A stretch of DNA of 64,000 nucleotides from Minisyncoccia bacterium. Its GTDB lineage: Bacteria; Patescibacteriota; Minisyncoccia; Phycocordibacterales; CAJBRS01. The stretch is from positions 142,205 through 206,204 of the forward strand of contig JBBQRF010000001.1 of assembly GCA_038215155.1 (NCBI GenBank). Reading direction: 5' to 3'. Each line of letters begins with the position of its first letter. Positions within the stretch are counted from its first letter, which is position 1. Shown here one piece after another: positions 3,356 through 56,439 of this stretch. The notes under the pieces were generated by a model. That model saw only the letters and a list, made by a program, of their open reading frames with translations. It made no database searches and had not been told where the DNA came from. A program made the position numbers and the translations under genes.

Positions 3356-3370
3356 ATATGTATATTATAC

Positions 3371-5195: not shown

Positions 5196-5196
5196 A

Positions 5197-6860: not shown

Positions 6861-7839
6861 TACTAAAGGAGGAGGGAGTAACTAGTAAATAGAGGGATGC
6901 GCCAAAGAGAATAAGGTGGGGCCATACTGCCTCACCAAATAAGAATAGAGACAAAGTAAGATAGAAGAGGCTAATTGTGACGACTAAGCGGGTTTGAAAG
7001 CCGAAGATGATACATAAGCCAATGAGAGCTTCCACTATCCCCGCCCCGAGGACAATTAGCAAGGGATCGTGCGGAAAAAGAAAATGAAAACGAGGGAGAT
7101 CATAGCCATTAACTACCGCCAGAGTGATAGCGGGATGAAGAAACTTAACATAAACGGCTGCATAGAGGAGGGCCAGACCGTAACTAATTCTAATAATTGG
7201 TTGCTCCCACTCTAGTTTAGTCCAAAGCCCTCTTCTCTTAAAAAAGAGGTAGTCTAGAGAATAGATTCCGGAGCCAAAAAAGATTAAAGCAAGAAATTCT
7301 CCGACGTAGCTTAAATAATTAAATAAATAAGCGCCGAAGGCAATAGCCGAAAGCTTTAAGACTATTATAGAGATCAGCCCTGCTGCTTCAGAAAATAATC
7401 CTAAAGCGATTAGAGCGCTAAGAAGGTAGAGGACGATTCTTATATAAGGAATGAAGGTAAGCTGATTTAAAGAAAGTTCCGGTCCGAGAAAGTTTTGAGA
7501 ATAGGCAGAATAAAAAAGGGCGGCCGCAACAGCCAGTCGAATGAAGATGGCGCCAAAATTGCCCAAGCGCTCAATTTTGGCGCTCAACTTATTCCCCACT
7601 CCTGATTGTTGAAATATAAAATTAGCAATTACTAAAACAAATATTCCAATACCAATTAATACCACTAACTGAATATTGGCCGGATCTAAAAGGGCGCGAA
7701 AAGGGTGGACGGTCGAATCCCTAAAACTTTGAGCAATTTCTCCCTCTGATAAAACATAAACTTCGTGTGCACTAGAAGATATCGGGAGACTAAAAAGTAA
7801 GAGGGCTAAGAAGTAAAATAGATTTTTCCAGTTACTCAT
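6802..7839 (-). CDS. polytopic membrane protein
   Basis: About 9 predicted TM helices; stop abuts the start of the giant fibre gene. Confidence 0.45.
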   Translation of the reverse strand: MSNWKNLFYFLALLLFSLPISSSAHEVYVLSEGEIAQSFRDSTVHPFRALLDPANIQLVVLIGIGIFVLVIANFIFQQSGVGNKLSAKIERLGNFGAIFIRLAVAAALFYSAYSQNFLGPELSLNQLTFIPYIRIVLYLLSALIALGLFSEAAGLISIIVLKLSAIAFGAYLFNYLSYVGEFLALIFFGSGIYSLDYLFFKRRGLWTKLEWEQPIIRISYGLALLYAAVYVKFLHPAITLAVVNGYDLPRFHFLFPHDPLLIVLGAGIVEALIGLCIIFGFQTRLVVTISLFYLTLSLFLFGEAVWPHLILFGASLYLLVTPSSFSIDNLASRLWYNMRQEGIIN

Positions 7840-10800
7840 TAAGGTGTAGTGCTACTATCTGCAGGAGGAGGCGCGTCGGTGGCAGAAGGTGCGCTGACTG
7901 AAGAGGAATTTCCGGTTTCAGTTGGCGGAGTAGGAGTAGGAGTGGTATCTGGAGATGGATCAGCCGGTAGCTCAGAAGTTGGAGGTAAAACAGACGTTGA
8001 CGTTGCAGCAGGGGGCGTATTTATAATGACAGGAGGCGGAGGCGTTGATATGACGTTGGTAGTACTTGTAGCGTTTTCATCCAGACACTCTCCTGGATCC
8101 GTCTTCATTGCGCCATTTTGCATAGTGATGCAGTAGTACTTTCCGGTAATCTTATCTTTAATAGTAATACCCTCTTCCACTTTCACGTGCTTCACCGTCA
8201 ACCTCTCCACGAAGACATCTTTCAGATATGCAATGCCATCTACTACTTCGGCGCCAAAACTTTGAAGGGCGCCGAGAATCTCTCCCCCAATAGAGGTGTG
8301 GTTAGTAGAAAGATTAGTTAATGATTCAATAGAAGCCACTCTAATCTCAAGCTTTCCTAGTGCTTCAGTAGTCGAAGCACTGTGGGAGTCTAGTTTCTTA
8401 GAAAGAGCTTGAATACCAATAAGTGCTACGCCTGCTGGATCAATGGAGGAGATACTGGTGTCAGATCCTCCTAGGTGGAACTTTTCATAGAAATCTTGGG
8501 CTACGGGACCAATGTGAGTAATTCCAGAGTTTTCTGATTTGTAATTCCACTGTTGGATATTAAGGTTATTGATCTTGCCCAAGACTTCTTCCCCATTTAA
8601 ATCTGTGAAGTTCTCCTTGAGATTGCGGTCCGAGGCGTTGGTCCAGGTACCTCCGACTGATAGGCAGGCGCCGTTTGATGCCAAGACACTCTTGTCTCCA
8701 TTAATAGAGAGCCATCCGTTGCAGTATCCTATTTGAGAAGAAGAGGAGGTGGCGTTTGTGAGACAGGCGCCGAAGGCGGAGGCAAGACAGGCAGAGGCGG
8801 TGTTGAAGAAGCCGAATGCATTGGATGAGGTGCCGGAAGCACCATTAGTTAAACCTATTGCAGAGCTTTTGTATCCACTAGAACTATTACCTACACCGAA
8901 TGCGACCACACAAACTCCGGAAGAAGTGTTGAGGTACCCCGCAATCGAAGCTCCTAACCCACTAGCAGTATTAGCAATACCGAAGCTTGAACTTTTATAG
9001 CCGCTCGAGGTGTTAGTCATGCCAAAAGCAAAAGCACAATTATTAGAGACGGTGTTTTGATATCCAAAACCTCCCGACAAATTGCAACTGACATTATTGA
9101 GCCAACCGAAGGCATTCGAATTGGATCCTGAAGAAGTATTTTGAATACCGAAAGCCACACTAGCATTTCCACTTGAAATGTTAGATTTTCCATAAGCCAC
9201 AGCAAAGGTGGTGCTAGCAATGTTTGAGTATCCACCGACAGAACTGCCAGGACCGGAGGCGGTGTTGGAATAACCAAAACCTGAGCTGTAATCTCCTGAG
9301 GCGGTGTTGCCGTAGCCGAAGGCGGAAGATAAATTGCCCGAGGCAATATTTCTATAACCGAAAGCTGAAGCAAAACGGTTGCCACTAGCCGTGTTGCAAA
9401 GACCAAGGGCGGAGTTGTAACAACTACTAGCCGTGTTGCAAACGCCGAAGGCGGAGGAAAGGTTGCCGGAGACGGTGTTGAAGCGGCCGACGGCTGATGA
9501 GAAACCTCCAGTAGCACAATTTACAAATCCTACGGCAACGCTCCCATTCCCAGCAGTAAACCCGCTATTGTTCCCCAACCCAACCACCACGCTACCATTA
9601 AAAGCGGCATTGGCAGAATTATTTATACCGATAGCAATGTTGTTGTATCCTCCGATAGCGGCGTTGGCATTATTTCCTAAACCAAAAGCCATACTACAAA
9701 TGGCATTAGTTTGATTACACGCCCCGAATGCAGCTCCCAAACAACTACTAACGGTATTGCGGTAACCCGAGGCGGAGGAGCAGCTTCCCGAGACAGTATT
9801 GTATGCTCCGGAGGCAGAACTGCGATTATTTGAAGCAAGGTTACAAAAGCCAAATGCACTTGCGGCAGATCCGCTTGCTGTATTGCAAAAACCAAAACCC
9901 GAAGCCCCTCCACCAGAAGCCGTGTTTAAATAACCTGCAACGGAACTACTATCTCCAATTGCTCTATTACAAAACCCCACCGCCGATGCCCTGCAACCAG
10001 AAGCTGAATTATAAACTCCGCTTGCTGTGGAGTAATCTTGAGTAGCGCAATTTTGATAGCCAAATGTATTTGAAACGTACGAGGTAGAGCAATTACGCGT
10101 ACCTAGGGCTAATGATCCATAACCTGTTGCAAAACTACACCGACCAAATATGGCACTGTAATTACCTGAAGAAGTATTAGCTTCTCCGATCGCTATAGAA
10201 CTACAGGCGCTTGCAATGTTAGAGAAGCCAATAGCGTAGCTTCTATATCCACTTGCAGTATTGCAGGCTCCAACTGCAGAGGAGTACGATAGCAGTCCGC
10301 CATATCCTCCTATTCCCCCTGCTTTGTTGCAATAACCAAGAGCCGTTGATCCCGTACTTGTTGCTTGATTTCTAAATCCCACTGCACTAGCATTTACTCC
10401 AGTAGCTGAGTTCTGGAATCCCACCTCTATCGGATTCAAGTTATTAACATTGGCTGCAGTTGTGGATGAGAAATTAGAACAGAAGGTGTTAAAGTTCTGA
10501 TTAATATTATTGATCTGATTCTGTATATTCTGCACCTCGGCTTTACTGACTCCATCCATGTGACCGATGACTGATCCACCAGCGTAGGTAATGTAGTTGT
10601 TGGTGACTGGAATTGTACTTGGTTGATTGTTTGCGGTATAGATCTCTGCTTCAAGCTTGTCGTTGAGAGCTTTTAGTTTTTGATTGAGTAATGTCTCGGT
10701 GACTCCATTAACAATGGTGGTGTTGCGGATGACTGTCACAGGTCCCGAGCTTGGCGAGGGACCTGTTGGAGCAGAAGGTCCTCCACCTTGAGAGGTGTAA

Positions 10801-11258
10801 TTGTTAATGATGGTGGTAGTAGAGTAGGTAGAACGTGGCAGTGGTGGGGGTGGAGTAGTAGGTTGGATGACTTTAATGATTGGAGAAGGTGGAGTGGGTT
10901 TTTTGAATAGATCAAAGAAGGAAGAGATGATGTCTCCAATAGAACTAATGACGCTTCCAGTAAGGGATAGTGGTTTAATGAAAAGAGCGTTCGAGTTTAA
11001 AGCAAGCTGGCCATTTCGGAAGTGCGAAATGGCCAGGAATTTCTGGATATTCCCGGGTTTTAGATCAAGAGAGTTGTTGGCTATTCTCTTTAAAGGGGAG
11101 GGGGTGGTTTTTTCGCGTGGTGAAAGAGAGTTTTCGCTTCCCAGAGTGCGAAAAAGGAGGAAAATAGCTAGAGAAAGTAAGGTTAATTTAGAAAGAAGAC
11201 GTTTCATTGATCCCTCGTTAATGATGGGATTATTGTAGCATATTCTAGAGGGGTGCAA
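7839..11258 (-). CDS. giant surface fibre protein (1139 aa): ~50 Hep_Hag-like G(Y/F)xN(T/I)ASGxxSSAxG repeats plus C-terminal intramolecular chaperone (peptidase S74 / tail-fibre) domain and Pro/Thr-rich tail
   Basis: N-terminal signal. Motif WTNASDRNLKENF...GPVAQDF typical of endosialidase/tail-fibre chaperone domains. Coiled coil, a two-Cys domain (YYCITMQNGAMKTDPGEC), then a PT-rich tail. Confidence 0.7.
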   Translation of the reverse strand: MHPSRICYNNPIINEGSMKRLLSKLTLLSLAIFLLFRTLGSENSLSPREKTTPSPLKRIANNSLDLKPGNIQKFLAISHFRNGQLALNSNALFIKPLSLTGSVISSIGDIISSFFDLFKKPTPPSPIIKVIQPTTPPPPLPRSTYSTTTIINNYTSQGGGPSAPTGPSPSSGPVTVIRNTTIVNGVTETLLNQKLKALNDKLEAEIYTANNQPSTIPVTNNYITYAGGSVIGHMDGVSKAEVQNIQNQINNINQNFNTFCSNFSSTTAANVNNLNPIEVGFQNSATGVNASAVGFRNQATSTGSTALGYCNKAGGIGGYGGLLSYSSAVGACNTASGYRSYAIGFSNIASACSSIAIGEANTSSGNYSAIFGRCSFATGYGSLALGTRNCSTSYVSNTFGYQNCATQDYSTASGVYNSASGCRASAVGFCNRAIGDSSSVAGYLNTASGGGASGFGFCNTASGSAASAFGFCNLASNNRSSASGAYNTVSGSCSSASGYRNTVSSCLGAAFGACNQTNAICSMAFGLGNNANAAIGGYNNIAIGINNSANAAFNGSVVVGLGNNSGFTAGNGSVAVGFVNCATGGFSSAVGRFNTVSGNLSSAFGVCNTASSCYNSALGLCNTASGNRFASAFGYRNIASGNLSSAFGYGNTASGDYSSGFGYSNTASGPGSSVGGYSNIASTTFAVAYGKSNISSGNASVAFGIQNTSSGSNSNAFGWLNNVSCNLSGGFGYQNTVSNNCAFAFGMTNTSSGYKSSSFGIANTASGLGASIAGYLNTSSGVCVVAFGVGNSSSGYKSSAIGLTNGASGTSSNAFGFFNTASACLASAFGACLTNATSSSSQIGYCNGWLSINGDKSVLASNGACLSVGGTWTNASDRNLKENFTDLNGEEVLGKINNLNIQQWNYKSENSGITHIGPVAQDFYEKFHLGGSDTSISSIDPAGVALIGIQALSKKLDSHSASTTEALGKLEIRVASIESLTNLSTNHTSIGGEILGALQSFGAEVVDGIAYLKDVFVERLTVKHVKVEEGITIKDKITGKYYCITMQNGAMKTDPGECLDENATSTTNVISTPPPPVIINTPPAATSTSVLPPTSELPADPSPDTTPTPTPPTETGNSSSVSAPSATDAPPPADSSTTP

Positions 11259-11276: not shown

Positions 11277-11930
11277 CTATCCTCCAAAGATGTCCATCTC
11301 GCTTAGAGGCTCAGCCTCTAAGCTCTTCCTTCGTTGAATATCCTTTATAGAATCCGAAGCAAATGATCTATAATCTTCCAGTGAGACAAACTGATCTAAA
11401 ATAACATTTTTTCCAATACAAATATCATTCGCCTCTATCTCCGACCTTTTATACTCTTCCCAGCTCGACACACTCAACTTAGAGGCTGAGCCTCTAAGGG
11501 TGTTATTTAAATTAATATAAGCGCTCAGATGAAGAAGATAGTGGTTAGAATCTATATGTTTGTTTTTATATCTTCCTTCAAAGAGACATCCGGTACGTTG
11601 ATATTTATCATTGAAATATCTGGTATAGCCGGTACTTACCCGATGCATGAATTTATTAACTCCTGAATCACTTATGGCCTTAACTAGAAAATGGTAGTGA
11701 TTGGAGTTAAGACAATATGATACAAATTCAACCAACTTAGAGGCTGAGCCTCTAAGTCCAGATCTGAAAGAGTTCACATGCAAACCTCCACCTGCGTATT
11801 CGGTATTAAAAATTATCATACTTTTAAAAAAACGCTTGAGATCGTTTGGGGCCATAAAAATATCCCGTTTATCAACACCTCGGTTATATATATGATAATA
11901 TTCCCCTTCTATAATTTTTATTTTCCTCAT
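11277..11930 (-). CDS. IS200/IS605-family Y1 (HUH) transposase, REP-associated tyrosine transposase (RAYT)-like
   Basis: YHIYNRGVDKRDIF, HUH motif NHYHFLV, catalytic Tyr region TGYTRYFNDKYQRTGCLFEGRYK, HYLLHLSAYINLN. The ORF contains three in-frame copies of a 21-nt palindrome, each translated as LRGSASK or SLEAEPLSE. Confidence 0.75.
   Translation of the reverse strand: MRKIKIIEGEYYHIYNRGVDKRDIFMAPNDLKRFFKSMIIFNTEYAGGGLHVNSFRSGLRGSASKLVEFVSYCLNSNHYHFLVKAISDSGVNKFMHRVSTGYTRYFNDKYQRTGCLFEGRYKNKHIDSNHYLLHLSAYINLNNTLRGSASKLSVSSWEEYKRSEIEANDICIGKNVILDQFVSLEDYRSFASDSIKDIQRRKSLEAEPLSEMDIFGG
11302..11322. repeat. 21-nt perfect palindrome cttagaggc(t/g)(c/a)gcctctaag, copy A (inside the 3' end of the transposase ORF)
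   Basis: Direct reading of the sequence. Confidence 0.9.
11478..11498. repeat. 21-nt palindrome copy B (inside the transposase ORF)
   Basis: Direct reading. Confidence 0.9.
11736..11756. repeat. 21-nt palindrome copy C (inside the transposase ORF)
   Basis: Direct reading. Confidence 0.9.
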
Positions 11931-12082: not shown

Positions 12083-12874
12083 CTATTTCCAAAAGTTGAG
12101 GTTCTCCAAGGGAGCAGCGAAGGCACCTAATACTTTTGGCCATTGAGGATCAATTGGTTCTACTTTGCTGCGAATGTCGTGAAGCCCTTTGAAACCATGG
12201 ACAGAGTCATCTTCCCAGGTCACTTGTTTTACATCCTCAAAATTATGTTTGAATGGCTTCTCATCTAAAAACTTGTAAATTTCTTCCATAGTCTTCTGCG
12301 GTTCTCGCGTCAGTTGTTCAAATTCTATAAAAAACATTCGATCTCGATATCCTCTATTAATAGCGTCGCGAATGCGAGAGTAAGCGAGACCTACTGGCTG
12401 ATCAACCTGCATCCAAACATCCACGCGCCCTTCCACTGTCTGAAATTTAAAATAATTGGCGGATTCTTGATTGATTTGTGTGGTACTGGAATTTGCTCGC
12501 CAAAGTTTTTCAAAGCTCGCAAGAATATCGCGGATGTCGCGCACTGGTACTAAAACTTTGGCTGGTCTTCCAATAACTGCTTCTGCCATTTCAATTAAGG
12601 AAAGCCAGCCCCGACATTTATCAAAGATTACTGGTTTTTCAATATCTTCGTAATAACTTTCTAGAATGCCGCGCATCACTCGCAGTAGCGCGGCGTCATT
12701 CGGCGCCGCTTGAAACTCCACTAGATTGTGCCATTGATTGCGCACACCAAACATTACATCCATGATGCCGCTCGTACCAGTAGTATGAAAGCGTGGATTT
12801 TGGGCCAGAATATTAGCAAGCAATGTTGACCCAGAACGAGGGAGGCCTGCAATAAAATGATAGGTCTTTTTCAT
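12083..12874 (-). CDS. sulfotransferase family protein
   Basis: N-terminal PAPS-binding P-loop-like GLPRSGSTLL (5'-PSB motif), size ~260 aa. Confidence 0.65.
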   Translation of the reverse strand: MKKTYHFIAGLPRSGSTLLANILAQNPRFHTTGTSGIMDVMFGVRNQWHNLVEFQAAPNDAALLRVMRGILESYYEDIEKPVIFDKCRGWLSLIEMAEAVIGRPAKVLVPVRDIRDILASFEKLWRANSSTTQINQESANYFKFQTVEGRVDVWMQVDQPVGLAYSRIRDAINRGYRDRMFFIEFEQLTREPQKTMEEIYKFLDEKPFKHNFEDVKQVTWEDDSVHGFKGLHDIRSKVEPIDPQWPKVLGAFAAPLENLNFWK

Positions 12875-12980: not shown

Positions 12981-15900
12981 TTAATTGGCAATTGAAACGG
13001 GGGCGTCTGGGGCGCTGATTGGTGCAGAGATAGTAGGAGCGGAGACGATGGGTGCTGCGATGGTTGGAACTGGAGTGACGACAGCTTCGACTGGGGCGGG
13101 ATTAGCAGGAGAGTTGCTTGGAGATGGAGCGACGCTCGCTGGTGCAACGTCTGGAGTAGGATCCGTTGGTGGAGTAACAGGAGGATGATCTATAGCACCA
13201 ATACCATCAACTGGTGAAGAGGTTGGGGCCGTTGCGACTGGAGGAGCGGATAAAGTTATAGTGTTGTTATTTGAATCGGTAGTAATAACTGAGTTAGTAG
13301 AAGTTGCGGTGGAATCAGGACACTCCCCTGCGTCACTTTTCATTTGACCATTCATAAAGTAGACACAAAGTGGTGCTCCAGTTCCCCGATCGTAGATAGT
13401 GAAGCCAGTTTTAGTAACGTCCTTGCCTTTAATGGTGAGATTCTGAGTAGTAAAGTGTTGAACAAAAACATTTTTCAGATATGAAATGCTGTCTACTATT
13501 TCAGATCCAAAGGATGTCAAAGTGCTGAAAAGTTCGGAGCCTAGACCCGCGCCTCCGGCGCCGCCCCCCATCCCCTCTTTCAATCCCTCTAAACTCTTCA
13601 CTCGAATATCAAGTGAAGCAAAAGCAGCGGTAGTAGAAGCATTTAAAACATCCTGTTTATTCATATAGTCAGTAGTGGATGCAGTGCTTGAAGCCAGGTT
13701 TTGATAAAGAGCCTTAACCGATGACATTAACAATCCATTAACGGAAACCTGATCAATTACATTTCCCCACATAAACTGTGGATCAACTTCGTCGGCAATA
13801 TATCCTAATCGTTTCTTAGCTAGCAGACTATCAGAACCATATCCTTCAACATCGTTCTTGTATCGGAAATAATGAAGAGGGGCGTCCAGGATTTTCTTCA
13901 AGCCATCATTATAGTCATCGTAATTTTCAATATCCTGCTTCGTCTCTCGTACAGAAGTTTGAGCTCCCACCACTACCCCAACGGTGTCCGTAGTCGTTGC
14001 CTGAAGAGGGTTAACTCTGACATTACCAGCGGAGTCTACCCACATAAATGTAGAGGTTCCGACTTTTCCAACAAATTGAAGAGCACCCGGACTAGCATTT
14101 GTCGCATTTGAGTTTCGCCCAAGGGTTAAGAATTGTCCTCCACTACCATTCCCTCGATCATAAGATGGTAAGACTAAGGAAGCGGTTCCTGAAGCGGCAG
14201 TGCTAAATTGCCCCGAATTTCCAATATCTAATAAGCGGGTAGGGGTAGAGGTGCCGATTCCAACCAAACCTCCGGCAGTGATATGTAAAACTGATGTTCC
14301 TGTGGATGAGGCAATGTCTAATATACCGTTTGCGCCCGCCAGACCCACCACCGAAAATCGGGAAGAACCAGTGCTTGTACCGATATTAATGACTCCATTC
14401 AAAGTATCTGCCACAAAAAGATGCGTGTTACCAGCCGACCCTTGAATTTGTAAAGCCGTCACAGAATCTGAGGTACTCTGAAAAGAAACAGGAGCACTTA
14501 CCACTCCTCTAAGTTGTACTCCGCCAATTTGGTATGACGTAAGAATTGCACCAGTTTGCAGTTGCACAGCATCAAGAAAGAAAGTTCGGCCTAAGGCATC
14601 TGTTTGTTCAATAAAAATATATGGGGTTCCGGAAATAGTACCGGAAGTAAATGTACAGGAAAATCTCTTCCATCCTCCCGTAACTACCGTAGTGTTGTTT
14701 AAAGTACAGGTTTGTTCATTTACTCCATCACTTGCTATCCCTGCTCTAATAGTAAAATTTGAGCTTGAGGCTTGGGCATAGAAAGATAAAGTGTATTGAG
14801 TAGCTGAAGACAAAGTATTTGTAAAAGCTGTGGTCTTAGCACCACTACTTGCTACAGCTGCATCAACAACTTGGAGCGAACTGATTCCGTGATACTTATT
14901 GGTAGTAACGCCAGTGATGGATCCAGATCCTAAGACTGGCGCCCATCCGTTTGTATTTGATTCAAACCCCGGATTATTCACTAAGTTAATAGTGCTTGTA
15001 TCTACCGTAAAGATAGGAGCACCCTGACTATTTTGGACCTGAAAAGCATTTGTGGTGTTTGTGGCAGTAAGAATACTTGCAGTTCCTACGACACTTAAAT
15101 TTTGCGAAGGAGTTGATGTTCCAATTCCAACATTTCCATTCTGTAGAACGGTTAAGAGAGAGATTCCTGTGGAGGAAGCAACGTTAAATGGATTTACTCC
15201 TGAGGATCCCTGAACGTTGAAGGTGAATGAAGAAGATGTGGCGTTAACTCCAGCTACAGTGGCGTTATCTAAAAATAATCCGGATGACAAAGTTGAAGCA
15301 CTGGTCCAGCGTGCTAGGAATCCATTTGTGCCTCCGGAAAGTGATCCTCCACCAATACCCAGAGTGGAGGTCGCTACCCACTGAGTGCCCGCCCCGTTTG
15401 TTTGCAAAACCATGCCATTAGTGCCGGCACTAGAATTTCTATCAAAAAATGTACCTGCAAGTGATAGCGCTCCACCAACCGAAAGGTTATTGGTGAAGGT
15501 GGAAGTGCCGGCACCGATTACAGTCGTCAGTCCGGTAAATAGGCCATTTCCGACAACGGAGAGAGCGGCCGTAGGAGACGATGTACCAATACCCACATTC
15601 GCCGTATTATTATTAAAAATATTGTTTCCGCTCTGAGTCCACACACTATTTAAAGTTGCTCCACTAAATGAAAGGCCGGTGCCCGGGGTGATCGCTGCTT
15701 GTTTACCATTAAAGGTACTCCAATCAGTTGCTGTTAGTAATCCCCTATTTGAGGCAGAGGCACTTGGCATATTAAAAGTGTGGATTGTCCCCGAAGAAAC
15801 AATGGAAAAATCTGTACCAGTAGTAGTGGTCGCAAAGGTTTGTGAAGATCCGCTAAGACCGTTAAGTGAAGTTATTCCCGATCCCCCACTAATTCCCAGA

Positions 15901-16784
15901 GTAGAGGTGGCAACCCAACGAGAAGATGTTCCTGTTGTTTGAAGCACCATACCCTGAGTTCCAATTGAGGAACTTCCATCGAAGAACCCTCCTGATAAAG
16001 AAAGTGCGCCACCAATGGATAGATTATTGTTGAAAGAAGATGTGCCAGCGCCGGAGACGGTGGTGATGCCGGTAAATAGTCCATTGCCAGCGACGGAAAA
16101 TTTTGTGCTGGGGGTGGTGGAACCAATCCCGACATTGCCGTTACTTAAAACACTGAAGACATTGGTGGCTCCACTGAAAAGATCGAAAACATTTCCCGTA
16201 CTATTTTGAGTGATGGAAAGTGCTGTTTGAGAAGATGAAGCGTTAATCGTTCCAGTTTGATCGGCTCGAACGTATTGCGTAGATGAAGCACCTCCAAGAT
16301 TATAAGATTCAATGGAGGCCGGTGTGGCGCCAAGGATTTTTCGTGGAGTCATTTCTGCATCGGATTCGATGGTGACACCAAGGTAAAGTGATTGGTTAAA
16401 ATTAACACCAGTAAATGGTGTGGTGGATCCGAGCATGATACTAAAGAGTCCACTTGTTACTTGAACCTTATTAGCTGCCGTATCACTCTCAGTCCAAATG
16501 GCCGCTCCCCCAGTGGAAACTGTGTAGAGTTTAAAAGTCATGTTATATAACCCGTCGGCCACTGCCACGTTAGAAGCGTTAGTTAATTTCCCTTGATAAT
16601 TGATCTGCTGGTTAATAGCAGCGTTTGCAATATTAAAATTAGCGCCAAAAATTGTAAAAAAAATACTCCCAGTAATAAGGAGTGTAAGTATGAGGGATCT
16701 TACGAGTGACTTATTAAGTTGTTTGTTAAATTTGCTTAACTGGACCATTTCAGAATCCCTCTGAAATCTATCCCCCTTGCTCAT
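12981..16784 (-). CDS. giant surface fibre protein (1267 aa) with internal ~190-aa repeats, CBM4/9-like domain and C-terminal intramolecular chaperone (S74-like) domain plus PT-rich tail
   Basis: Signal/TM LVRSLILTLLITGSIFFTIFGANFNIANA; repeated TTVSGAGTSSFNNNLSIGGALSLSGGFFD modules; NPGFE...GW carbohydrate-binding-like module; C-terminus paralogous to 7839..11258. The better start is probably the Met at 16748, which has GAGGGA 7 nt upstream. Confidence 0.7.
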   Translation of the reverse strand: MSKGDRFQRDSEMVQLSKFNKQLNKSLVRSLILTLLITGSIFFTIFGANFNIANAAINQQINYQGKLTNASNVAVADGLYNMTFKLYTVSTGGAAIWTESDTAANKVQVTSGLFSIMLGSTTPFTGVNFNQSLYLGVTIESDAEMTPRKILGATPASIESYNLGGASSTQYVRADQTGTINASSSQTALSITQNSTGNVFDLFSGATNVFSVLSNGNVGIGSTTPSTKFSVAGNGLFTGITTVSGAGTSSFNNNLSIGGALSLSGGFFDGSSSIGTQGMVLQTTGTSSRWVATSTLGISGGSGITSLNGLSGSSQTFATTTTGTDFSIVSSGTIHTFNMPSASASNRGLLTATDWSTFNGKQAAITPGTGLSFSGATLNSVWTQSGNNIFNNNTANVGIGTSSPTAALSVVGNGLFTGLTTVIGAGTSTFTNNLSVGGALSLAGTFFDRNSSAGTNGMVLQTNGAGTQWVATSTLGIGGGSLSGGTNGFLARWTSASTLSSGLFLDNATVAGVNATSSSFTFNVQGSSGVNPFNVASSTGISLLTVLQNGNVGIGTSTPSQNLSVVGTASILTATNTTNAFQVQNSQGAPIFTVDTSTINLVNNPGFESNTNGWAPVLGSGSITGVTTNKYHGISSLQVVDAAVASSGAKTTAFTNTLSSATQYTLSFYAQASSSNFTIRAGIASDGVNEQTCTLNNTTVVTGGWKRFSCTFTSGTISGTPYIFIEQTDALGRTFFLDAVQLQTGAILTSYQIGGVQLRGVVSAPVSFQSTSDSVTALQIQGSAGNTHLFVADTLNGVINIGTSTGSSRFSVVGLAGANGILDIASSTGTSVLHITAGGLVGIGTSTPTRLLDIGNSGQFSTAASGTASLVLPSYDRGNGSGGQFLTLGRNSNATNASPGALQFVGKVGTSTFMWVDSAGNVRVNPLQATTTDTVGVVVGAQTSVRETKQDIENYDDYNDGLKKILDAPLHYFRYKNDVEGYGSDSLLAKKRLGYIADEVDPQFMWGNVIDQVSVNGLLMSSVKALYQNLASSTASTTDYMNKQDVLNASTTAAFASLDIRVKSLEGLKEGMGGGAGGAGLGSELFSTLTSFGSEIVDSISYLKNVFVQHFTTQNLTIKGKDVTKTGFTIYDRGTGAPLCVYFMNGQMKSDAGECPDSTATSTNSVITTDSNNNTITLSAPPVATAPTSSPVDGIGAIDHPPVTPPTDPTPDVAPASVAPSPSNSPANPAPVEAVVTPVPTIAAPIVSAPTISAPISAPDAPVSIAN

Positions 16785-16937
16785 TTTGAAAGTCGGAGCA
16801 CGACTTAATCCCTCGTCTAAAATTATAGCTTAAGCAGATTTTTAAACAAGCACCTTGGGAGGACGGGCCGATAGAACTTTAAGGGAAAACGAGCTTGAAG
16901 AATAAGGCTGCTTTAGCAGGGTCGGAGTTATCCCCAC

Positions 16938-18311
16938 CTAGCGGCTAGACAGAGGGTCACAAGATTTTGCTTTTGCTCTGCGATAAAGACGAAATAGTAA
17001 ATATAGAATTAGGATGAGTAGGATCCACCATAGGTAGCACCAATTGTTTTTGGGAACGGAAGTACCTTCAGTTTGAATTTCATATTTGTCTTCTGAAATA
17101 GTTTTACCGTTGTTATCTTCCCCACCAATAAAGAATGAGTAGTGATTTATTTTTTTAAAGGACGGCAGAATACCTTGAAATGTGTTGGTGTCCCCTTCTC
17201 TCATTAAATTATAAGAATGGTAAAGTGTAGCATCATCTTCGTCCTGAACACTGACAATTAACTCTCTGAAGTTAAGTGGCAAATTTTCTATAGAAGCAAT
17301 TACTTTTAGTGGTATTCCGATTTTCACTCTGGCACGGCTATTGTAGAAATAAATCTGCTGGTTATCTTGTTCTAAATTTATTTTCACTTTTAAAGTGGAG
17401 GAATCGAGATTAATCTTGTTGGTCGAAGTAGAGGTGGGAGTGAACACTTTAACTTCGCCACTTTTAATTAACCTAACATAAAGAAGAGCGCCTGATGAAA
17501 AGTTTCCATCATTGTTCTCCACAAATGCCGCGTAGTAATAATCTTGATCAATTGATAAATTGGAATCAGTAACAGAGTTCCCCGCTCCCTTATAAATTAA
17601 TTTTCCGAATGTTGGGTCGGTGGGATAAAAATATTCAGAACGCAAGATCAAGACATCCCGAAAAGATTGATTGGAAGAATATTTCCAAGAAAGTTTAAGA
17701 TCGTTGCCTACTAATTTATAAGAAAAATTTATAACATTTATGGGAGATCGAAAACGACTTGTGGTGACGAAAGGTAATGCACCAACATAAGTGATATGTC
17801 CGTCTTTGTCAGTTGATTGGATTTTAAAATAATACTTAGTACCTGGCTCTAAATTATCCAATTCAATTTGATGATGTGTGCTGTAGTTAATTTCGGCCAC
17901 GGCGCCGTAATCCGCATCGGTATTTTTTCCCCACGATAAAGTGCCCAACGAATAACCGTAAGTTTGCCAGTGAATGATAACTGAGGTATCTGAAAGAATC
18001 TCTACTCGAATGCTTCCAGGATAAATGGCACTACCGTTAAAAGAGCCGCCTGGTGAAGTAGCAGGATTAGGATTGGAGATTGTACCGATAGTGCTTGGAG
18101 TGTTGCAATCAAGTGGGCAGCCTTGATAAGTTTCGCCGAATTGAGGCTCGCAAATATTATTGTTATTACAATTATGAACTTCGAGATTAACTACGCCGCC
18201 CGCTACGGCCGCCGCGGCGGCCGTAGCGGGCGATCCGTCGAAAAATAAAAACAGTGCGGGCAAGGTTGCCATTAATAAGAATGCCTTCCTCATTCCCATA
18301 TTATAGAGCAA
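16938..18311 (-). CDS. secreted protein with Cys-rich module, FN3-like domain and C-terminal TM anchor
   Basis: Signal peptide; CNNNNICEPQFGETYQGCPLDC; FN3-like GTKYYFKIQSTD; C-terminal WCYLWWILLILILYLLFRLYRRAK. Confidence 0.45.
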   Translation of the reverse strand: MLYNMGMRKAFLLMATLPALFLFFDGSPATAAAAAVAGGVVNLEVHNCNNNNICEPQFGETYQGCPLDCNTPSTIGTISNPNPATSPGGSFNGSAIYPGSIRVEILSDTSVIIHWQTYGYSLGTLSWGKNTDADYGAVAEINYSTHHQIELDNLEPGTKYYFKIQSTDKDGHITYVGALPFVTTSRFRSPINVINFSYKLVGNDLKLSWKYSSNQSFRDVLILRSEYFYPTDPTFGKLIYKGAGNSVTDSNLSIDQDYYYAAFVENNDGNFSSGALLYVRLIKSGEVKVFTPTSTSTNKINLDSSTLKVKINLEQDNQQIYFYNSRARVKIGIPLKVIASIENLPLNFRELIVSVQDEDDATLYHSYNLMREGDTNTFQGILPSFKKINHYSFFIGGEDNNGKTISEDKYEIQTEGTSVPKNNWCYLWWILLILILYLLFRLYRRAKAKSCDPLSSR

Positions 18312-19014
18312 TAGCCGTTACTGTAACGGAAGCTGTGTAGGTACCGGCGTCTTGAATCTTATTCGTCCCAATACCTACTTGGTATTTAATCGAGGTAGTA
18401 GCGCCCACCGGTTGATTGGCCGTACTTGTTAGAGAGATGGTCTTAGAACTAGTAGATAAGCCATCCCAACAACGGTCAGTAGTGTCAGTGGAGCCGGTGT
18501 TACAAAGGGTGCCATTATTTCTATATCGTGCAATAACATCATTGCCATGGGGAGAAAAGCCAAAAGTGGAGGAGGCAGCGCCATAAGTAAAAGTAAAATC
18601 GGGAGCGGCTCCAACAGGCAGATAGTCTGTGATGCTAGAGCTGGCTGATTTTAGCGCGGGGGAAGTAGTAGCGGTAACTGAAAGTTGATAACCAGCCGGA
18701 TCATCAGTTACTACTACCCAATCTGATTGAGCTTGACTGGTGCCTCCAGAAATACCCCCAATACTTGGTAGAGTAATGTTAACTGTATTAGAAAGTGCTA
18801 TGTAATTTGCAGATAAAGCTTGATATCCGGCACTCAATCTATAATTTGTACTGGTGCCAAATCCGGTCCCCACTTCACCCACCGTACTTTCTGTTTTGTA
18901 ATTAGTGCTAGTGCCTAATCCCCCTCCACTATTAAGACTATCGGACTGAATCCGATAGGATCCACTCTGCATCACATAAGCTAATAGAACTATTGGAATG
19001 AAAAGGCTTTTCAT
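18301..19014 (-). CDS. secreted Thr/Ser/Gly-rich beta-rich protein, pilin/SCPU-like subunit (paralog of 19995..20648)
   Basis: Signal peptide; shared block W.V.TDD.AGY.L..T and C-terminal AGTYTASVTVTAIAL. Confidence 0.45.
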   Translation of the reverse strand: MKSLFIPIVLLAYVMQSGSYRIQSDSLNSGGGLGTSTNYKTESTVGEVGTGFGTSTNYRLSAGYQALSANYIALSNTVNITLPSIGGISGGTSQAQSDWVVVTDDPAGYQLSVTATTSPALKSASSSITDYLPVGAAPDFTFTYGAASSTFGFSPHGNDVIARYRNNGTLCNTGSTDTTDRCWDGLSTSSKTISLTSTANQPVGATTSIKYQVGIGTNKIQDAGTYTASVTVTAIAL

Positions 19015-19989
19015 CTATCTCTTTCTCTTGAATTCAAAATTCTTTCGAAGGAAGTAACTAGCTGAGACGATAATTAATAGAATGAGGAGTACAATAGCAA
19101 TCCACTTCCAAGGAATAACCCAGATTGAAATTTTAAGAACATCGGTAGTGCTGCCGTATCCTCTATTGAGGGAAACTTCGGCAGTGTAACGGCCAAAGGC
19201 AGCGGTTCTTCCCCATGGAATTTCTCGATAGCGAAGGGAGTGCGGTAGAGCGAAATAGGCATCAACTGGTAACTGATCTACTGTTGCCCCCCACATATTT
19301 TTAACCGTGATATAGCCATAAGGAACTAAGTGAACATTTCCATCATTGTTAAAGTAGATCTGAAAAGTTAAATTAGCGTTTTGGTAAACCGGTCCTTTTT
19401 CTTTAACCCGAAAATCTGAAAGGTGTCCACTTTGTGTGACTGGTCCGTTTACTCTAACAAAGAATAGTGAAGCGATTCGCGAAATGATGGTAGCTCCGGG
19501 CGCTTCGGCTGCACCGGTAGTGGTAGCTCCGAGCTTCGAAGGAGCATTAGAAACTATCATAGCCGCGTAGAATCCGCCCGGTGCAGCGGTTTTTGGAAGT
19601 TCTATTGTAACGGGAATTTGAATTCGTTGGCCAAAATTTAGAGTAAACTGTTTAATCTCTGGATGAAGATAATCTTTTAAGGAATATGGACTCTTGTCCC
19701 CTCCCAATAAAATAACAGGCTGATCTATTTGATTAGAGCCGATGATATCTTCGGAGGTAAGTGCGAAAGTTATTGGACTCTTCACCCGGCTCGTAATGGA
19801 AATACTCCGAGTGGCAGACTCCCCCGGATTAATATTTACTTCTTGTTTGGCTGGCTCAACAATAAAATCGTTCCTGTCGGCAACAGTGCTTTGGAATAAA
19901 GTGTAAGCTCGAAGAGCTATAGCTCCAACTAATAAGAAGATGACGATACTACTGATAGAGAGAAGCAGTTTCTTCTTATTGTTGGGCAT
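19015..19989 (-). CDS. membrane protein anchored at both ends (N-terminal signal-anchor, C-terminal TM plus basic tail)
   Basis: MPNNKKKLLLSISSIVIFLLVGAIAL... ; C-terminal WKWIAIVLLILLIIVSASYFLRKNFEFKRKR. Confidence 0.45.
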   Translation of the reverse strand: MPNNKKKLLLSISSIVIFLLVGAIALRAYTLFQSTVADRNDFIVEPAKQEVNINPGESATRSISITSRVKSPITFALTSEDIIGSNQIDQPVILLGGDKSPYSLKDYLHPEIKQFTLNFGQRIQIPVTIELPKTAAPGGFYAAMIVSNAPSKLGATTTGAAEAPGATIISRIASLFFVRVNGPVTQSGHLSDFRVKEKGPVYQNANLTFQIYFNNDGNVHLVPYGYITVKNMWGATVDQLPVDAYFALPHSLRYREIPWGRTAAFGRYTAEVSLNRGYGSTTDVLKISIWVIPWKWIAIVLLILLIIVSASYFLRKNFEFKRKR

Positions 19990-19994
19990 AGATT

Positions 19995-20648
19995 CTATAA
20001 GGGTGTCGCTGTCCCAATAACAGTAGCGTTGTAAGTAGCTGCTGGAATGAAGAAGTTGTTTTGCTCAACTGCATAACAAGTTGTTGTTACTATTCCTGCA
20101 GGTGTGGTGGTGGCAGCGCGAGAGGCCACATTTTTTTGGACAGTATAGGCCGCTGAAGTTGTAGCTAGACCTTGATATTTAAGAGTGGTGGAAATGGCGT
20201 TTCCGACTCCACAGTTAGCTCCTGTTCCCCAGTCGGAGGTAAGAGTATCTGTTCCAAAGGCTGAATAACCAAAGTAGGCATTACTTGTGGTAGCTGACCA
20301 AAGGTTTGGGGCTCCTTTTTGATAGTCTGTGATTGAGAATCCTCCAGTGGTAGATTGCATGGCGGGAGTACTAGTGGAAGTGAGTGCCAGAGTGTATCCG
20401 GCACCGTCGTTCGTAATGACGGTCCACGTAGTAGTACCTACGGCAGTATTTTGAGCAATACCTAGTGACGTACTCATGGTTGAGTTTCCAGAATTAGTCA
20501 AACTAATTCCCTGAGTGACGTTTAAAGTAATTACAACTTGAGCGGTAACTGCTTTAGCAAATTGAGGTTCCAATGCTCCCCAAGAAAAGAAAGCCACTAA
20601 AGTAAGGACTAGTGTGGTTGGAATAATAGTACGAAGGTGCTTTAACAT
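19995..20648 (-). CDS. secreted Thr/Ser/Gly-rich pilin/SCPU-like subunit (paralog of 18301..19014)
   Basis: Signal peptide; TTTWTVITNDGAGYTLALTSTSTPAMQ...SITDY; C-terminal AATYNATVIGTATPL. Confidence 0.45.
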   Translation of the reverse strand: MLKHLRTIIPTTLVLTLVAFFSWGALEPQFAKAVTAQVVITLNVTQGISLTNSGNSTMSTSLGIAQNTAVGTTTWTVITNDGAGYTLALTSTSTPAMQSTTGGFSITDYQKGAPNLWSATTSNAYFGYSAFGTDTLTSDWGTGANCGVGNAISTTLKYQGLATTSAAYTVQKNVASRAATTTPAGIVTTTCYAVEQNNFFIPAATYNATVIGTATPL

Positions 20649-20789
20649 AATAGTTTTTATTAATAGAATTATACCCCGCGCTATTTACAAGCGCAAGGAA
20701 AATAACTATTGGTGGGGATAAGTTCCCCAGAGACCATCCCTCTTAATGATAGTAGACGGGGAAAGTAAAGTTATCTTACATTTAACTAA

Positions 20790-21422
20790 CTATAGAATCC
20801 TTTCTCCGATCGTTCCGCCGATCGAATCATCATTCATGTGAACGTAACGATGTCGCTCTTTGTCGAGTCTGGCCAACTCCATCACTCTTTGTACAAGTAC
20901 TTTAGGATCGTCGCTAAAGATCACTTTGTCATTAGATCTATGACTCTTATCCATAATATGTTTAATCACTTCGTCAGTGTCTTCCCAATCGCCAGTTAAA
21001 ACGCCAATTGGTTTTAAGTCTTCAAAAGCAATAGTGAATTCGTGAATGGTGCCGATTCGTCCTGGCCCAATAATAATGGCGTCGGCTGAACGAGTCATTA
21101 AAAGGTCCCGGCCCGAGTAACCAAAACCGGTATAAATAATTAGATCCATATTATCAAGTGGTAGACGATATGTTTCTACGTGTTCTATTTCGCCTGAGGC
21201 AGGAGAAAGTCCGATAGAGATGCCTTTTTCCTCCTTTGCTCCAATGGCAGACCACAGCGGAAAACCAGTAGTAGCGCCAGTAATCAAAATACCGTTCTGG
21301 CGAACTATTTCTTTGCCAACTTCCTTTGCTTTGTCGTAGGCAATCTGGCCGAGAAATCCCATCTCTGCCGCTCCGGAAACCGCTACTTTTATTTTTAAAT
21401 GACCGTGTTTATCAGAATCCAT
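20790..21422 (-). CDS. LOG/TIGR00725-family Rossmann-fold nucleotide-binding protein
   Basis: KIKVAVSGAA..GILITGATTGFPLWSAIGA...IIIGPGRIGTIHEF pattern. Confidence 0.5.
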   Translation of the reverse strand: MDSDKHGHLKIKVAVSGAAEMGFLGQIAYDKAKEVGKEIVRQNGILITGATTGFPLWSAIGAKEEKGISIGLSPASGEIEHVETYRLPLDNMDLIIYTGFGYSGRDLLMTRSADAIIIGPGRIGTIHEFTIAFEDLKPIGVLTGDWEDTDEVIKHIMDKSHRSNDKVIFSDDPKVLVQRVMELARLDKERHRYVHMNDDSIGGTIGERIL

Positions 21423-21444
21423 ATAGAAAAATTATAACACAGAA

Positions 21445-22410
21445 TTACTTACGCAATATTTTTAAAATTTCTTTTTTTAGCTCAGTGACAGAGGTGTCGT
21501 CATAAACAGATACGACATAAATCTTAGTGTTAGAAGAGGAAAGGACTTTTTTTGCTTGGTCTAATACATCTTCCGAAACTAAATCAGATTTTGTCAGAAT
21601 AATTATTTCAGATTTTTTCGCCATTATTGGATCGAATTTTTCAATTTCGGCCCGAATAGTTTTATAGTTTTCAAGTATGTCGCCCTCAGCAGAGATGCAG
21701 TGAAATAGATAAGTAGTTCGTTTAACATGACGGAGAAACTTATGACCCAATCCCTTCCCTGCTGATGCGCCGGAGATTAAGCCTGGAATATCAGCCAGGA
21801 TAAATTCAAAGAGTGCTCCGAGATTCGGTTCCAGTGTAGTGAATTGATATTGTCCCACTCTCGCTTCCGCTCCAGTTAAGGCGTTAAGTAAACTAGATTT
21901 GCCGGCATTGGGTAATCCGATTAACCCCGCCGCCGCCACTAATTCCACCTCAATAAAAAAATCCGCTTCTTCTCCGGTTTTACCGGGAGTGAATTCGGTC
22001 GGTCGAACGTTAGTAGATGCTTTAAAATGCTCGTTACCCAGACCCCCGCGTCCGCCTTCCAGGAGAAGGACGGCCTCCTCTTTATCTACTAGACTGATTT
22101 TCTTGCTAGTTTCTAAATTGGTGATGACAGAACCGATTGGTACGTTAATAGTGAGATCTTCTCCATCTTTTCCGTGCATGCTTCTTTTCATGCCGCTTTG
22201 ACCATTCTCCGCACTAAATTCCTTTTTGTGGCGATAGTGGGAGAGTATATTTAAATCACTAACTGCCTTGGCATAAACACTACCACCTCGACCCCCATTT
22301 CCTCCAGATGGTCCCATGAATTCCTTACCTTTTTCATGCAGCCAGCGCACCACTCCGTCGCCTCCGCGGCCAGCTTTTATGTGTACTCTTAATTCATCTA
22401 CGAAAGCCAT
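21445..22410 (-). CDS. obg: GTPase Obg
   Basis: Obg N-domain FVDELRVHIKAGRGGDGVV..GGNGGRGGSVY; G-domain GLIGLPNAGKSSLLNALT. Confidence 0.9.
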   Translation of the reverse strand: MAFVDELRVHIKAGRGGDGVVRWLHEKGKEFMGPSGGNGGRGGSVYAKAVSDLNILSHYRHKKEFSAENGQSGMKRSMHGKDGEDLTINVPIGSVITNLETSKKISLVDKEEAVLLLEGGRGGLGNEHFKASTNVRPTEFTPGKTGEEADFFIEVELVAAAGLIGLPNAGKSSLLNALTGAEARVGQYQFTTLEPNLGALFEFILADIPGLISGASAGKGLGHKFLRHVKRTTYLFHCISAEGDILENYKTIRAEIEKFDPIMAKKSEIIILTKSDLVSEDVLDQAKKVLSSSNTKIYVVSVYDDTSVTELKKEILKILRK

Positions 22411-23297
22411 TATGATTGAACTGCTATTTCTGCTAAGGCGTTCGCTGCTTCGCGTGTCTTAGCAATTACTAAATGCCGACCATTGTGACAAAAAACTGCT
22501 CCTTTTACGCCGCTTACCTTTTCAAAATCCTCGTCACGCTTGCCTGCCCAGCTTTCGGGAAAAAGTTTGCGACTTTTAAATGATACACCCTCATCTCGAA
22601 CACCAGCCACTGCCCATTCGGGACGACGACCATCATTTGCTACTACAAAAAGTGGTTCGGCGAAACTGCTTAAAATTTCTTTCCAATTATAAGTATCATT
22701 AATAACGATAATTCTTTTGTCTGGTGCTTCTTCATAGGCCTGGTAAACGAATTTCTTTCCTTCTAAATAATGTTCCGCTCGAGTCACCTCGCGGGTTAAA
22801 ATTTCTTTAAGTGCTGGCAGAATTTTAAGAAAGGATTCGTCTACGTTTTGATCTTTCTCTTTCCAGGTGGGAATGAAAGATGAAATAGCGGTCTCAATTT
22901 GATATGGGCGAACGTTTTTAGAAATTGGCTCGAAAACCGCCACTCCATTATCTTCTGCGTCTATTGATTGAATTAATTTCTGGTCAATTCGGAATGCCGC
23001 TTCCTCGCCGCTGCAAATTTTAGGTCCAAACTCTTTCCAAACCAATCCAAAAGAAGCGTACGGCACCCCATTTGCACGCACTCCCCCTCCTCCTTTTTGA
23101 TGATGGTCGAAGCGATTATTTTTAGGATCCAATTCTCCTCCAATATCCACCACGTAATCGCCGGTCTTAATTATTTCTGGATCACGAGTACGGATAATTT
23201 CACAATCTTTAGCTTCAATCTTTAAATACAAAAGTATGGTGGCAACGGCAAAAAGCTCGTCTGGATGAAAGTTGCCGCTGTGAGTAATAATTCGCAT
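22410..23297 (-). CDS. MYG1/UPF0160-family metal-dependent hydrolase
   Basis: ITHSGNFHPDELFAVATIL signature. Confidence 0.7.
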   Translation of the reverse strand: MRIITHSGNFHPDELFAVATILLYLKIEAKDCEIIRTRDPEIIKTGDYVVDIGGELDPKNNRFDHHQKGGGGVRANGVPYASFGLVWKEFGPKICSGEEAAFRIDQKLIQSIDAEDNGVAVFEPISKNVRPYQIETAISSFIPTWKEKDQNVDESFLKILPALKEILTREVTRAEHYLEGKKFVYQAYEEAPDKRIIVINDTYNWKEILSSFAEPLFVVANDGRRPEWAVAGVRDEGVSFKSRKLFPESWAGKRDEDFEKVSGVKGAVFCHNGRHLVIAKTREAANALAEIAVQS

Positions 23298-53464: not shown

Positions 53465-53467
53465 ATT

Positions 53468-55888: not shown

Positions 55889-55902
55889 ACATTAAGTATA
55901 TC

Positions 55903-55936
55903 AAAACAAAAATCTCGCGCGAGGCGAGATTTTTGT
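55903..55936. terminator. rho-independent terminator after the major pilin gene
   Basis: atctcgc-gcgag-gcgagat followed by a T-tract (read on the minus strand). Confidence 0.5.
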
Positions 55937-55959
55937 TAACTTCAAACTGAACGAAGGAA

Positions 55960-56397: not shown

Positions 56398-56404
56398 TAA
56401 TTTT

Positions 56405-56439
56405 TAATAATTCTAATAATTCTAATAATTCAATAATTC
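56405..56439. repeat. 9-nt tandem repeat (taataattc) x4 in the pilA promoter region
   Basis: Direct reading. Confidence 0.6.

Follow-up and report, generated by a model that had tools for sequence, protein, structure and literature searches.

A conserved gene module of Paceibacteria built around a WxLIP-like protein with a chaperone fold

What kind of surface structure is encoded by a tight cluster of secreted and membrane-anchored proteins that comes without an usher? The question is raised by a locus in a 64-kb window, the whole stretch of DNA that was analysed here, from a Minisyncoccia bacterium (contig JBBQRF010000001.1). Four consecutive genes, labelled A, B, C and D, are followed by a fifth, E, which encodes a giant tail-fibre-like protein, and all five lie on the minus strand. 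A first reading made from the letters alone (hereafter the sequence-only reading) had taken A to D for an operon of paralogous pilin-like subunits alternating with membrane-anchored partners, with an unknown mechanism. I found that B is remotely homologous to WxLIP, the protein that interacts with WxL in Gram-positive bacteria, and that it has the fold of the PapD chaperones; A to E probably form a strand-complementation surface module built around this protein. The description as uncharacterised did not hold, because the WxL/WxLIP clusters and the Pam pilus of Candidate Phyla Radiation (CPR) bacteria share this logic. Within Paceibacteria the locus represents a conserved and so far unstudied variant of surface-assembly systems that were described recently, rather than something wholly unknown.

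Gene order and protein B

The four open reading frames (ORFs) A to D were recovered with the same bounds as in the sequence-only reading (Table 1). They are spaced by 5 nucleotides (nt) between A and B and 0 nt between B and C, followed by an 11-nt overlap of C and D that turns into a 1-nt gap if D begins at codon 5. Scanning one genome per species yielded 80 related loci, in which ORFs were called and searched with the proteins of the window. The order A-B-C-D was kept in all 73 species-level loci where it could be tested, an arrangement far beyond chance; the remaining seven end at a contig edge and were hence untestable. Median gaps inside A to D were 7-17 nt, D always stood directly after C, and a giant E homolog came next after D in 59 loci at a median distance of 486 nt. 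The conserved unit exceeds A to D and includes the giant fibre gene, which bears out both the dedicated surface module and the link to the adjacent fibre that had been proposed. Hundreds of homologs were found for B and likewise for C, all unannotated and from Paceibacteria/Parcubacteria-type genomes, and the B-family profile reached 1,052 clusters (50% identity) at an E-value (E) of 1e-30 or better and 8,801 at 1e-3 or better.

Distant relatives retained the triad of a small protein, B and a second small protein, with the downstream genes swapped. Since the triad is kept while its downstream genes vary, the conserved core is the triad, to which an anchored protein and a variable giant adhesin are added. 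One distant version, on a Jacksonbacteria-type contig (L090, 7014-19095), has a triad of 226, 364 and 239 amino acids (aa); where D and the tail-fibre-like E would stand, it has a membrane protein of the Wzy_C/TPR type (772 aa), a protein of 434 aa and a giant protein with FG-GAP repeats (>2500 aa). A second distant locus has a short FN3 protein after the triad.

The identity of B was established by structure and by sequence profiles. Its AlphaFold2 (AF2) model, with a predicted local distance difference test score (pLDDT) of 90.5, comprises an N-terminal helix, two beta-sandwiches joined by a disordered loop, and a C-terminal transmembrane (TM) helix. Comparison with the PDB by Foldseek placed the Enterococcus faecium WxLIP structures 9i25_C ('bound to long WxL') and 9i1y on top (E ~1e-12), with CfaA, CsuC, Caf1M, FimC, DraB and YadV next (1e-7 to 1e-10), along with RbmA. 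PF06030 (WxLIP_PGBD, DUF916) was detected in 12 of 48 B-family members, the best at 1.4e-8, and B of the window itself stayed below threshold (16 bits vs. a 27.3-bit cut-off). Among PDB sequences the B-family profile found EfmWxLIP1 at E 1.6e-4, and its hhalign comparison with seven plasmid-borne WxLIPs gave a probability of 96.5% and E 8e-10 across both domains (240 columns). Because the Foldseek and profile tests agree, B is a remote WxLIP homolog with a chaperone (PapD) fold. Some of its relatives in Patescibacteria carry the automatic name 'DUF916 domain-containing protein'.

The chaperone-usher pili of Gram-negative bacteria (Pap/Fim, Caf1, CFA/I and the archaic Csu) share the two-domain chaperone fold of B, as seen in CfaA, CsuC, Caf1M and FimC, but they have an usher and an outer membrane, neither of which is present here, and B is tethered to the membrane. 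In those pili the incomplete Ig fold of a subunit takes up first the G1 strand of the chaperone and later the N-terminal extension of a neighbouring subunit. Sequence similarity to them was not significant: a single member of the B family gave a PF00635 match (E 0.045), and the match to a model of fimbrial chaperones stood at E 0.052. No large beta-barrel usher-like gene was seen in the module or in the 80 related loci with their fixed five-gene order. The earlier statement that chaperone-usher genes are missing was right about the usher and wrong about the chaperone, since B itself is a PapD-fold, chaperone-like WxLIP homolog.

Hydropathy placed hydrophobic segments at residues 8-26 and 296-314 of B, the latter followed by a basic tail. 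The proposal that B is anchored at both ends stands for the C-terminus; the N-terminal helix is perhaps no second anchor but a signal peptide that is cleaved off, and WxLIP and Pam relatives are described with signal peptides. Between the two sandwiches, a variable loop with low column occupancy (pLDDT <50 at residues 153-162) aligns with the corresponding segment of EfmWxLIP1 and runs into a highly conserved strand (Table 1). A disordered hairpin loop of WxLIP is predicted by AlphaFold to turn into a strand completing the WxL sandwich (PMC10599100). By analogy, the loop region of B is a candidate complementing (G1-like) strand, on the assumption that the two loops are equivalent.

Subunits A and C, protein D and giant protein E

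The two small proteins flanking B are paralogs, as the sequence-only reading had it. A and C share 32% identity over 174 aa (BLASTP, E 8e-17), and their family profiles align at 99.9% (hhalign, E 1.7e-33) over a common C-terminal core of ~165 residues that begins at residue 48 of A. The motif W.V.T[DN]..AGY.L and the C-terminal GTY.A..T.TA..L occur family-wide in both alignments, and A and C are single-core proteins of ~200 aa with one common domain. Their C-terminus is of fixed length: a conserved Tyr lies exactly 12 residues from the end in 41 of the 46 members of the A family (alignment A3) and at the same position in 82 of the 96 A and C members together, whereas the tails of WxL proteins vary. 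The C-terminal strand of C has Gly at -14 and alternating residues.

A contains 20% Thr and starts with a signal-like hydrophobic segment by hydropathy. Ahead of the core common to C lies a conserved, alternating-hydrophobic segment (residues 34-47), a candidate donor strand; an I/V-x-V-x-L-x-V pattern is common to the mature N-termini of the A (VVxTLxV) and D (I.V.L.V) families. A is tandemly duplicated upstream of B in eight of the 80 species-level loci (L008, L013, L014, L018, L026, L033, L040 and L057). An additional A-like gene was seen downstream of D at L060. None of the 46 A-family members matched a Pfam or NCBIfam family, the C family had no significant Pfam match either, and the A and C profiles returned noise only when searched against PDB sequences.

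C links the module to the CPR pilus. Residues 7-117 match NCBIfam NF058579 (CPR_pilus_PamT) with 30.7 bits and E 2e-7, as do 49 of 50 C-family members (best 1.4e-13), all far under the 240-bit equivalog cut-off, which indicates that C is probably a distant PamT relative and not an equivalog. Foldseek comparison of its AF2 model (residues 70-237 mostly with pLDDT >90) against the PDB gave the PapGII pilin domain as the top match (probability 0.99), followed by CS20, CsuA/B, PapA, FimA, TasA and CanA, the last of them archaeal; these top matches are donor-strand fibre subunits. The chaperone-usher pilins are only weakly resembled, and the TasA fibre 8aur_A stood among the weak matches at E 0.027. 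The pilin-like beta-sandwich proposed for the small paralogs was borne out to the extent that the best matches of the C model are donor-strand subunits, all of them weak (best E 5.6e-3).

The N-terminal extension of C, ~55 residues with three repeats (Table 1), has many near-invariant positions, yet its AF2 pLDDT is 49-62; it is part of the PamT-matching stretch. A hidden Markov model of this extension, run against all ORFs of the window and of 82 fetched loci, matched C-family ORFs only. In two of 76 species an N-terminal LamG/pentraxin-like (lectin-type) domain is added to C (L070:10893-12296 and L058:1521-3044), giving proteins of about twice the length in which this domain precedes the S-x-N-Y extension and the pilin-like core. 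It matched the PAPP-A2 LamG module at E 2e-5, 4qvs at 1.6e-4 and pentraxin at 0.008, and the layout of a lectin domain plus a pilin is that of the chaperone-usher tip adhesins FimH and PapG.

The more specific guesses about A and C did not hold up. No match to SCPU (PF05229) or the TasA/camelysin Pfam models was found in the 96 A and C members, and DUF4402 gave a single, non-significant hit in the C family (E 0.032); the WxL model PF13731 matched none of 50 C-family and none of 46 A-family members. The likeness to TasA/camelysin, SCPU and DUF4402 proteins is that all are secreted beta-sandwich subunits, and no SipW-like signal peptidase was seen adjacent to the module. Neither outcome that would have refuted the sequence-only reading came about, for the subunits are not enzymes and relatives keep the cluster together. 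A PDB chain named 'BtpiA' (9jdi_C) matched the C-family profile non-significantly (E 0.46) over WTINADRNLGYSLQLE, which recalls W.V.TD..AGY.L; a literature search found no paper on BtpiA.

D was described as a Cys-rich FN3 protein with a TM anchor. The FN3 domain (residues 98-171; PF00041 at E 1.2e-5 and PF16656, Pur_ac_phosph_N, at 3.7e-8) and the TM segment (residues 424-442 by hydropathy, with a basic tail) are both there; 'Cys-rich' was overstated for a protein with six Cys, four of which lie within a conserved N-terminal C-x5-C...C-x3-C motif (family alignment A4).

A hydrophobic segment marks the N-terminus of E, which also has a conserved domain of ~110 aa, a CBM_4_9 / GTA-spike-fibre-like domain (CBM_4_9 at E 2.4e-13, GTA_spike_fiber at 1.8e-7) and a Pro-rich tail. 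Its homologs range from 254 aa to >2600 aa, the short ones being cut by locus ends; the N-terminal ~110 residues are strongly conserved and the remainder is hypervariable. A domain common to C and E, or to C and the D family, was sought by hhalign with the C profile and none was found; E thus does not bear the A/C domain as a 'large WxL-like' protein would.

Two promoter-like elements were read by hand and carry low weight. The one upstream of A fits the -35 consensus at three of six positions only and was not flagged by the promoter scan. The second lies in the 153-nt spacer between D and E and suggests, again with low weight, that E may have its own promoter. Across the scan, promoter and terminator sites were no more numerous than in shuffled sequence.

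Table 1. Genes of the module and features within and next to them, in window coordinates.
Feature	Coordinates	Strand	Description	Basis
Promoter-like element upstream of A	20668-20696	(-)	TTGCGC-17 nt-TATAAT, ends 19 nt before ATG	hand-read, low weight
Gene A	19995-20648	(-)	secreted, 217 aa; signal peptide with AKA site; mature N-terminal strand VVxTLxVTxG; Cys pair C146/C191; fixed-length C-terminal strand GTY.A.I..TA..L	ORF call
A residues 34-47 (VTAQVVITLNVTQG)	20508-20549	(-)	conserved alternating-hydrophobic N-terminal segment, ahead of core common to C	
Gene B	19015-19989	(-)	324 aa; N-terminal helix (signal or anchor); two beta-sandwich domains, Ig-like (30-148, 171-291); C-terminal TM helix, basic tail	ORF call
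B residues 149-182	19444-19545	(-)	variable loop, then highly conserved strand IISRxGxLFFVRVNG, end of domain 1	
B C-terminal TM helix, residues 296-314	19048-19104	(-)	followed by RKNFEFKRKR	hydropathy; AF2 helix 294-317
Gene C	18301-19014	(-)	secreted, 237 aa; core 72-237 common to A; C171/C182 invariant	ORF call
C residues 17-70	18805-18966	(-)	N-terminal extension, ~55 residues, three S-x-N-Y-x-[ILx] repeats	
Gene D	16938-18311	(-)	457 aa; starts at TTG, with ATGs in frame at codons 5 and 7; signal peptide, N-terminal strand and 4-Cys motif, FN3 domain(s), further beta-rich sequence, C-terminal TM helix, basic tail	ORF call
D residues 37-69	18105-18203	(-)	conserved I.V.L.V.G strand, then CNNN.ICE...GE...SCP.DC	
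Promoter-like element in D-E spacer	16822-16850	(-)	TTGTTT-16 nt-TATAAT	hand-read, low weight
Gene E	12981-16784	(-)	1267-aa giant tail-fibre-like surface protein	ORF call

Assembly model and competing explanations

How might such a set of parts work? The account I put forward tentatively, and which falls a little short of probable, is a minimal Pam-like, usher-less and Sec-dependent system in which B captures A and C, A polymerises, C lies distally, D is the anchor and E the adhesin. The C-terminal helix of exported B would tether it to the outside of the cytoplasmic membrane, where B would capture exported A and C, with a strand from its domain-1 loop (~150-180) entering their incomplete beta-sandwich. 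Donor-strand exchange would then move the subunits into a short fibre or stalk, with A (sometimes duplicated) as the repeating subunit and C (PamT-like, and lectin-fused in some species) as the distal one. D would close and anchor the structure through its N-terminal I.V.L.V strand and C-terminal TM helix, and E would be a co-inherited hypervariable adhesin working with or on this base in attachment to host or prey. I infer the strand that is donated, the polymerisation, the subunit order, the role of D and the physical link to E. Counted in favour of this account were the fold and homology of B, its loop and invariant strand, the PamT likeness and Pam-like parts list, the donor-strand matches of C and its lectin-fused forms, the fixed C-terminus of A and C, the conserved C extension, the N-terminal strands of A and D, the A-B-C-D synteny, and the persistence of the triad in distant lineages.

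The closest model for such a system is the Pam pilus of Candidatus Mycosynbacter amalyticus, for which cryo-electron microscopy showed PamA and PamB filaments built by donor-strand exchange (bioRxiv 10.64898/2026.03.03.709456, a 2026 preprint). PamA and PamB consist of an N-terminal beta-sandwich, a linker donor strand and, at the C-terminus, a truncated Ig domain. The other proposed parts are the chaperones PamC/D, which resemble PapD and are retained in the membrane through a C-terminal helix, the tip subunit PamT, which has a single domain, and PamR, an RbmA-like FnIII protein that has an N-terminal strand as well as a C-terminal helix and is proposed as terminator or anchor; a tail-fibre-like gene is co-localised and ATP synthase genes lie nearby. 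Saccharimonadia and Microgenomatia are the main lineages in which the pilins were reported, and neither WxL, DUF916 nor Paceibacteria is mentioned in the preprint (all from bioRxiv 10.64898/2026.03.03.709456).

Both systems come from CPR bacteria, consist of Sec-exported parts and have no usher. PamC and PamD are likened to B by fold and description, and not by sequence, in their PapD fold and retention by a C-terminal TM helix, PamR is likened to D by description (FnIII, C-terminal TM helix, N-terminal strand), and PamT is a single-domain subunit to which the similarity of C is sub-threshold; the tail-fibre-like neighbour has its counterpart in the adjoining, co-conserved E. They differ in that Pam has two chaperones where there is one chaperone-like gene here, and in lineage, Saccharimonadia and Microgenomatia as opposed to Paceibacteria. 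A motif search of the window found no F1 alpha/beta Walker motifs of ATP synthase.

Several points weigh against a Pam-like fibre. A two-domain major pilin like PamA, PamB or PamE is missing from the module, as judged from the 64-kb window and the relatives of the module. The NCBIfam scans of the A and D families, and of the B family with its remoter relatives, matched no Pam model, although whether NCBIfam holds Pam models beyond PamT is not known. The PamT match is confined to the N-terminal half of C and lies far below the curated cut-off, and the pilin-fold matches of C are weak, none being below E 1e-3 and the TM-score being ~0.5 on the target. The N-terminal strand of A may just be the first strand of its own fold. 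Lastly, WxLIPs, the nearest characterised relatives of B, are not known to build filaments, and a type IV pilus cluster in the window could account for any pili of the organism.

The strongest alternative starts from the same homology. WxL/WxLIP (Csc) surface clusters are known from Bacillota such as Enterococcus, Lactiplantibacillus and Listeria (PMC10599100; PDB 9i1y, 9i25). WxLIP comprises the Ig-like domains DUF916 (PF06030, PGBD) and DUF3324 (HBD) and a TM helix, its complex with WxL has been solved (9i25), and the commonest cluster type has a single WxLIP with two WxL proteins. The present module could be a static complex of this kind, in which membrane-bound B inserts a strand into A and C, thereby binding and stabilising them, and forms a non-polymeric scaffold for adhesins such as E, possibly touching the cell wall, as proposed for Bacillota WxL/Csc; I regard this as possible but rather doubtful. 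Beyond the two-Ig-domain homology of B to WxLIP and their common layout of signal peptide and C-terminal TM helix, it draws on a gene arrangement that agrees nearly size for size: E. faecium pEfm12493 has LPXTG 117 - WxL 232 - WxLIP 340 - WxL 237, compared with 217-324-237 for A-B-C. The window likewise has one WxLIP-like gene flanked by two partners, with an anchored protein and a large adhesin nearby (A-B-C-D-E), and other plasmid WxL clusters carry a variable giant adhesin beside WxLIP (BspA with 1492 aa, a protein of 1424 aa resembling pectate lyase, or MucBP), as E stands beside A to D. The lack of a PamA/B-like major pilin also fits a static complex.

What speaks against it is the nature of A and C. 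The WxL consensus V.VTD.RG...GW.L recalls their W.V.TD..AGY.L, and the WxL C-terminus Y.TT.TW.L recalls Y.AT.TVTA, so that a shared pattern of V.VTD...G[W/Y].L[ST] and Y.T..T[W/V].[L/A] can be drawn up; but both Trp residues of the defining dual motif are replaced, by Y.L and V.A where WxL has W.L. In hhalign comparisons with ten small WxL proteins the A and C profiles reached probabilities of 1% and 12%, non-significant values with which the motif resemblance stays only a lead, and PF13731 was matched by no A or C member. The solved WxL chain 9i25_A was not among the 50 best structural matches of the C model, which are pilins and fibre subunits. Both on the profiles and on the structural matches, A and C were rejected as WxL domains. 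The fixed C-terminus and the lectin-fused C look pilin-like too. Further differences are that WxL clusters use an LPXTG anchor where D uses a TM helix (no sortase motif was found in the 64-kb window), that their giant protein has a C-terminal WxL domain where E has a conserved N-terminal domain, and that their hosts are Bacillota and not a CPR bacterium.

A non-structural role appears improbable: the proteins could form a complex for glycan binding or utilisation, as once proposed for Csc, or an assembly and quality-control factor specific to E, with A and C as accessory lectins or caps. The CBM_4_9 domain of E, the lectin-like domains on C in two species, the resemblance of the FN3 of D to domains attached to glycoside hydrolases and phosphatases, and the Wzy_C/TPR protein in the place of D at a distant locus would all suit such a role, but no catalytic domain was detected in A to D, and the fold of B matches chaperones and WxLIP, not enzymes or transporters. 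Moreover, the A-B-C triad persists beside unrelated giant proteins, for example the FG-GAP protein, and so is not specific to one fibre type. That the genes are unrelated neighbours with fortuitous pilus and WxL similarity would agree with the weak scores of most single A and C comparisons, but is effectively refuted by the synteny (73 of 73 loci in identical order with 7-17 nt median gaps), by the A/C profile match at E 1.7e-33, and by a B-WxLIP homology backed by three independent methods.

A still wider proposal is speculative, and I consider it unlikely as a whole. The module would be a third, minimal branch of one ancient usher-less assembly family of single-membrane bacteria, linking WxL/WxLIP clusters, Pam and, more distantly, the chaperone-usher pili; A would form a thin, hitherto unseen fibre by donor-strand exchange on the tethered chaperone, with C as tip and D as anchor, carrying or cooperating with E, and the whole would be the principal host-attachment organelle of the most species-rich CPR class.

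Neighbouring genes and significance

The surroundings of the module, all on the minus strand, hold further surface and folding genes. A complete type IV pilus cluster (52005-63712) includes five ORFs with the prepilin motif GFTL[IV]E within 52529-56397, a PilB-like ATPase (59188-60912, GPTGSGKS) and genes resembling PilT (57718-58779), PilC (56507-57715) and PilM (62600-63712); the organism thus possesses a second filament system, of the classical kind. Another giant fibre protein, of 1139 aa (7839-11258), has a Peptidase_S74 intramolecular-chaperone domain (E 2.7e-12) and YadA-head-like repeats, and since its N-terminus is unlike the conserved domain of E, it is probably not tied to A to D. 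Between the two giant fibre genes lie an IS200-like Y1 transposase (11277-11930) and a sulfotransferase (12083-12874), which may reflect mobility or modification of the fibres. An extracytoplasmic folding set (2867-5694) consists of an FKBP-type peptidyl-prolyl isomerase (2867-3355), a DsbA-like thioredoxin (4530-5195) and DsbB (5197-5694); it is relevant here because A and C each carry one conserved Cys pair and D its 4-Cys motif. Directly upstream of the module (20790-23297) are a SLOG/LOG-like gene (PF18306, E 5e-30), an Obg GTPase homolog (assigned by similarity in related loci) and MYG1/UPF0160. Obg was found near the module in only seven of the 80 related loci, so these upstream genes are not part of it.

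Few bacteria are as diverse and as poorly understood as Paceibacteria, whose attachment to hosts is largely unknown. The wide distribution of the module, its invariant order in the genomes examined and its hypervariable giant adhesins single it out as a prime candidate for an organelle of host contact. The module also offers an evolutionary bridge, not made in the Pam preprint, in that the 'chaperone' of a pilus-like CPR system is a homolog of WxLIP from Gram-positive pathogens and probiotics. If this bridge is true, WxL clusters may use strand complementation of the chaperone type, usher-independent donor-strand assembly would be widespread in single-membrane bacteria, and A, C and E would offer testable targets by which the surface structures of Paceibacteria could be enriched, labelled or identified by cryo-EM.

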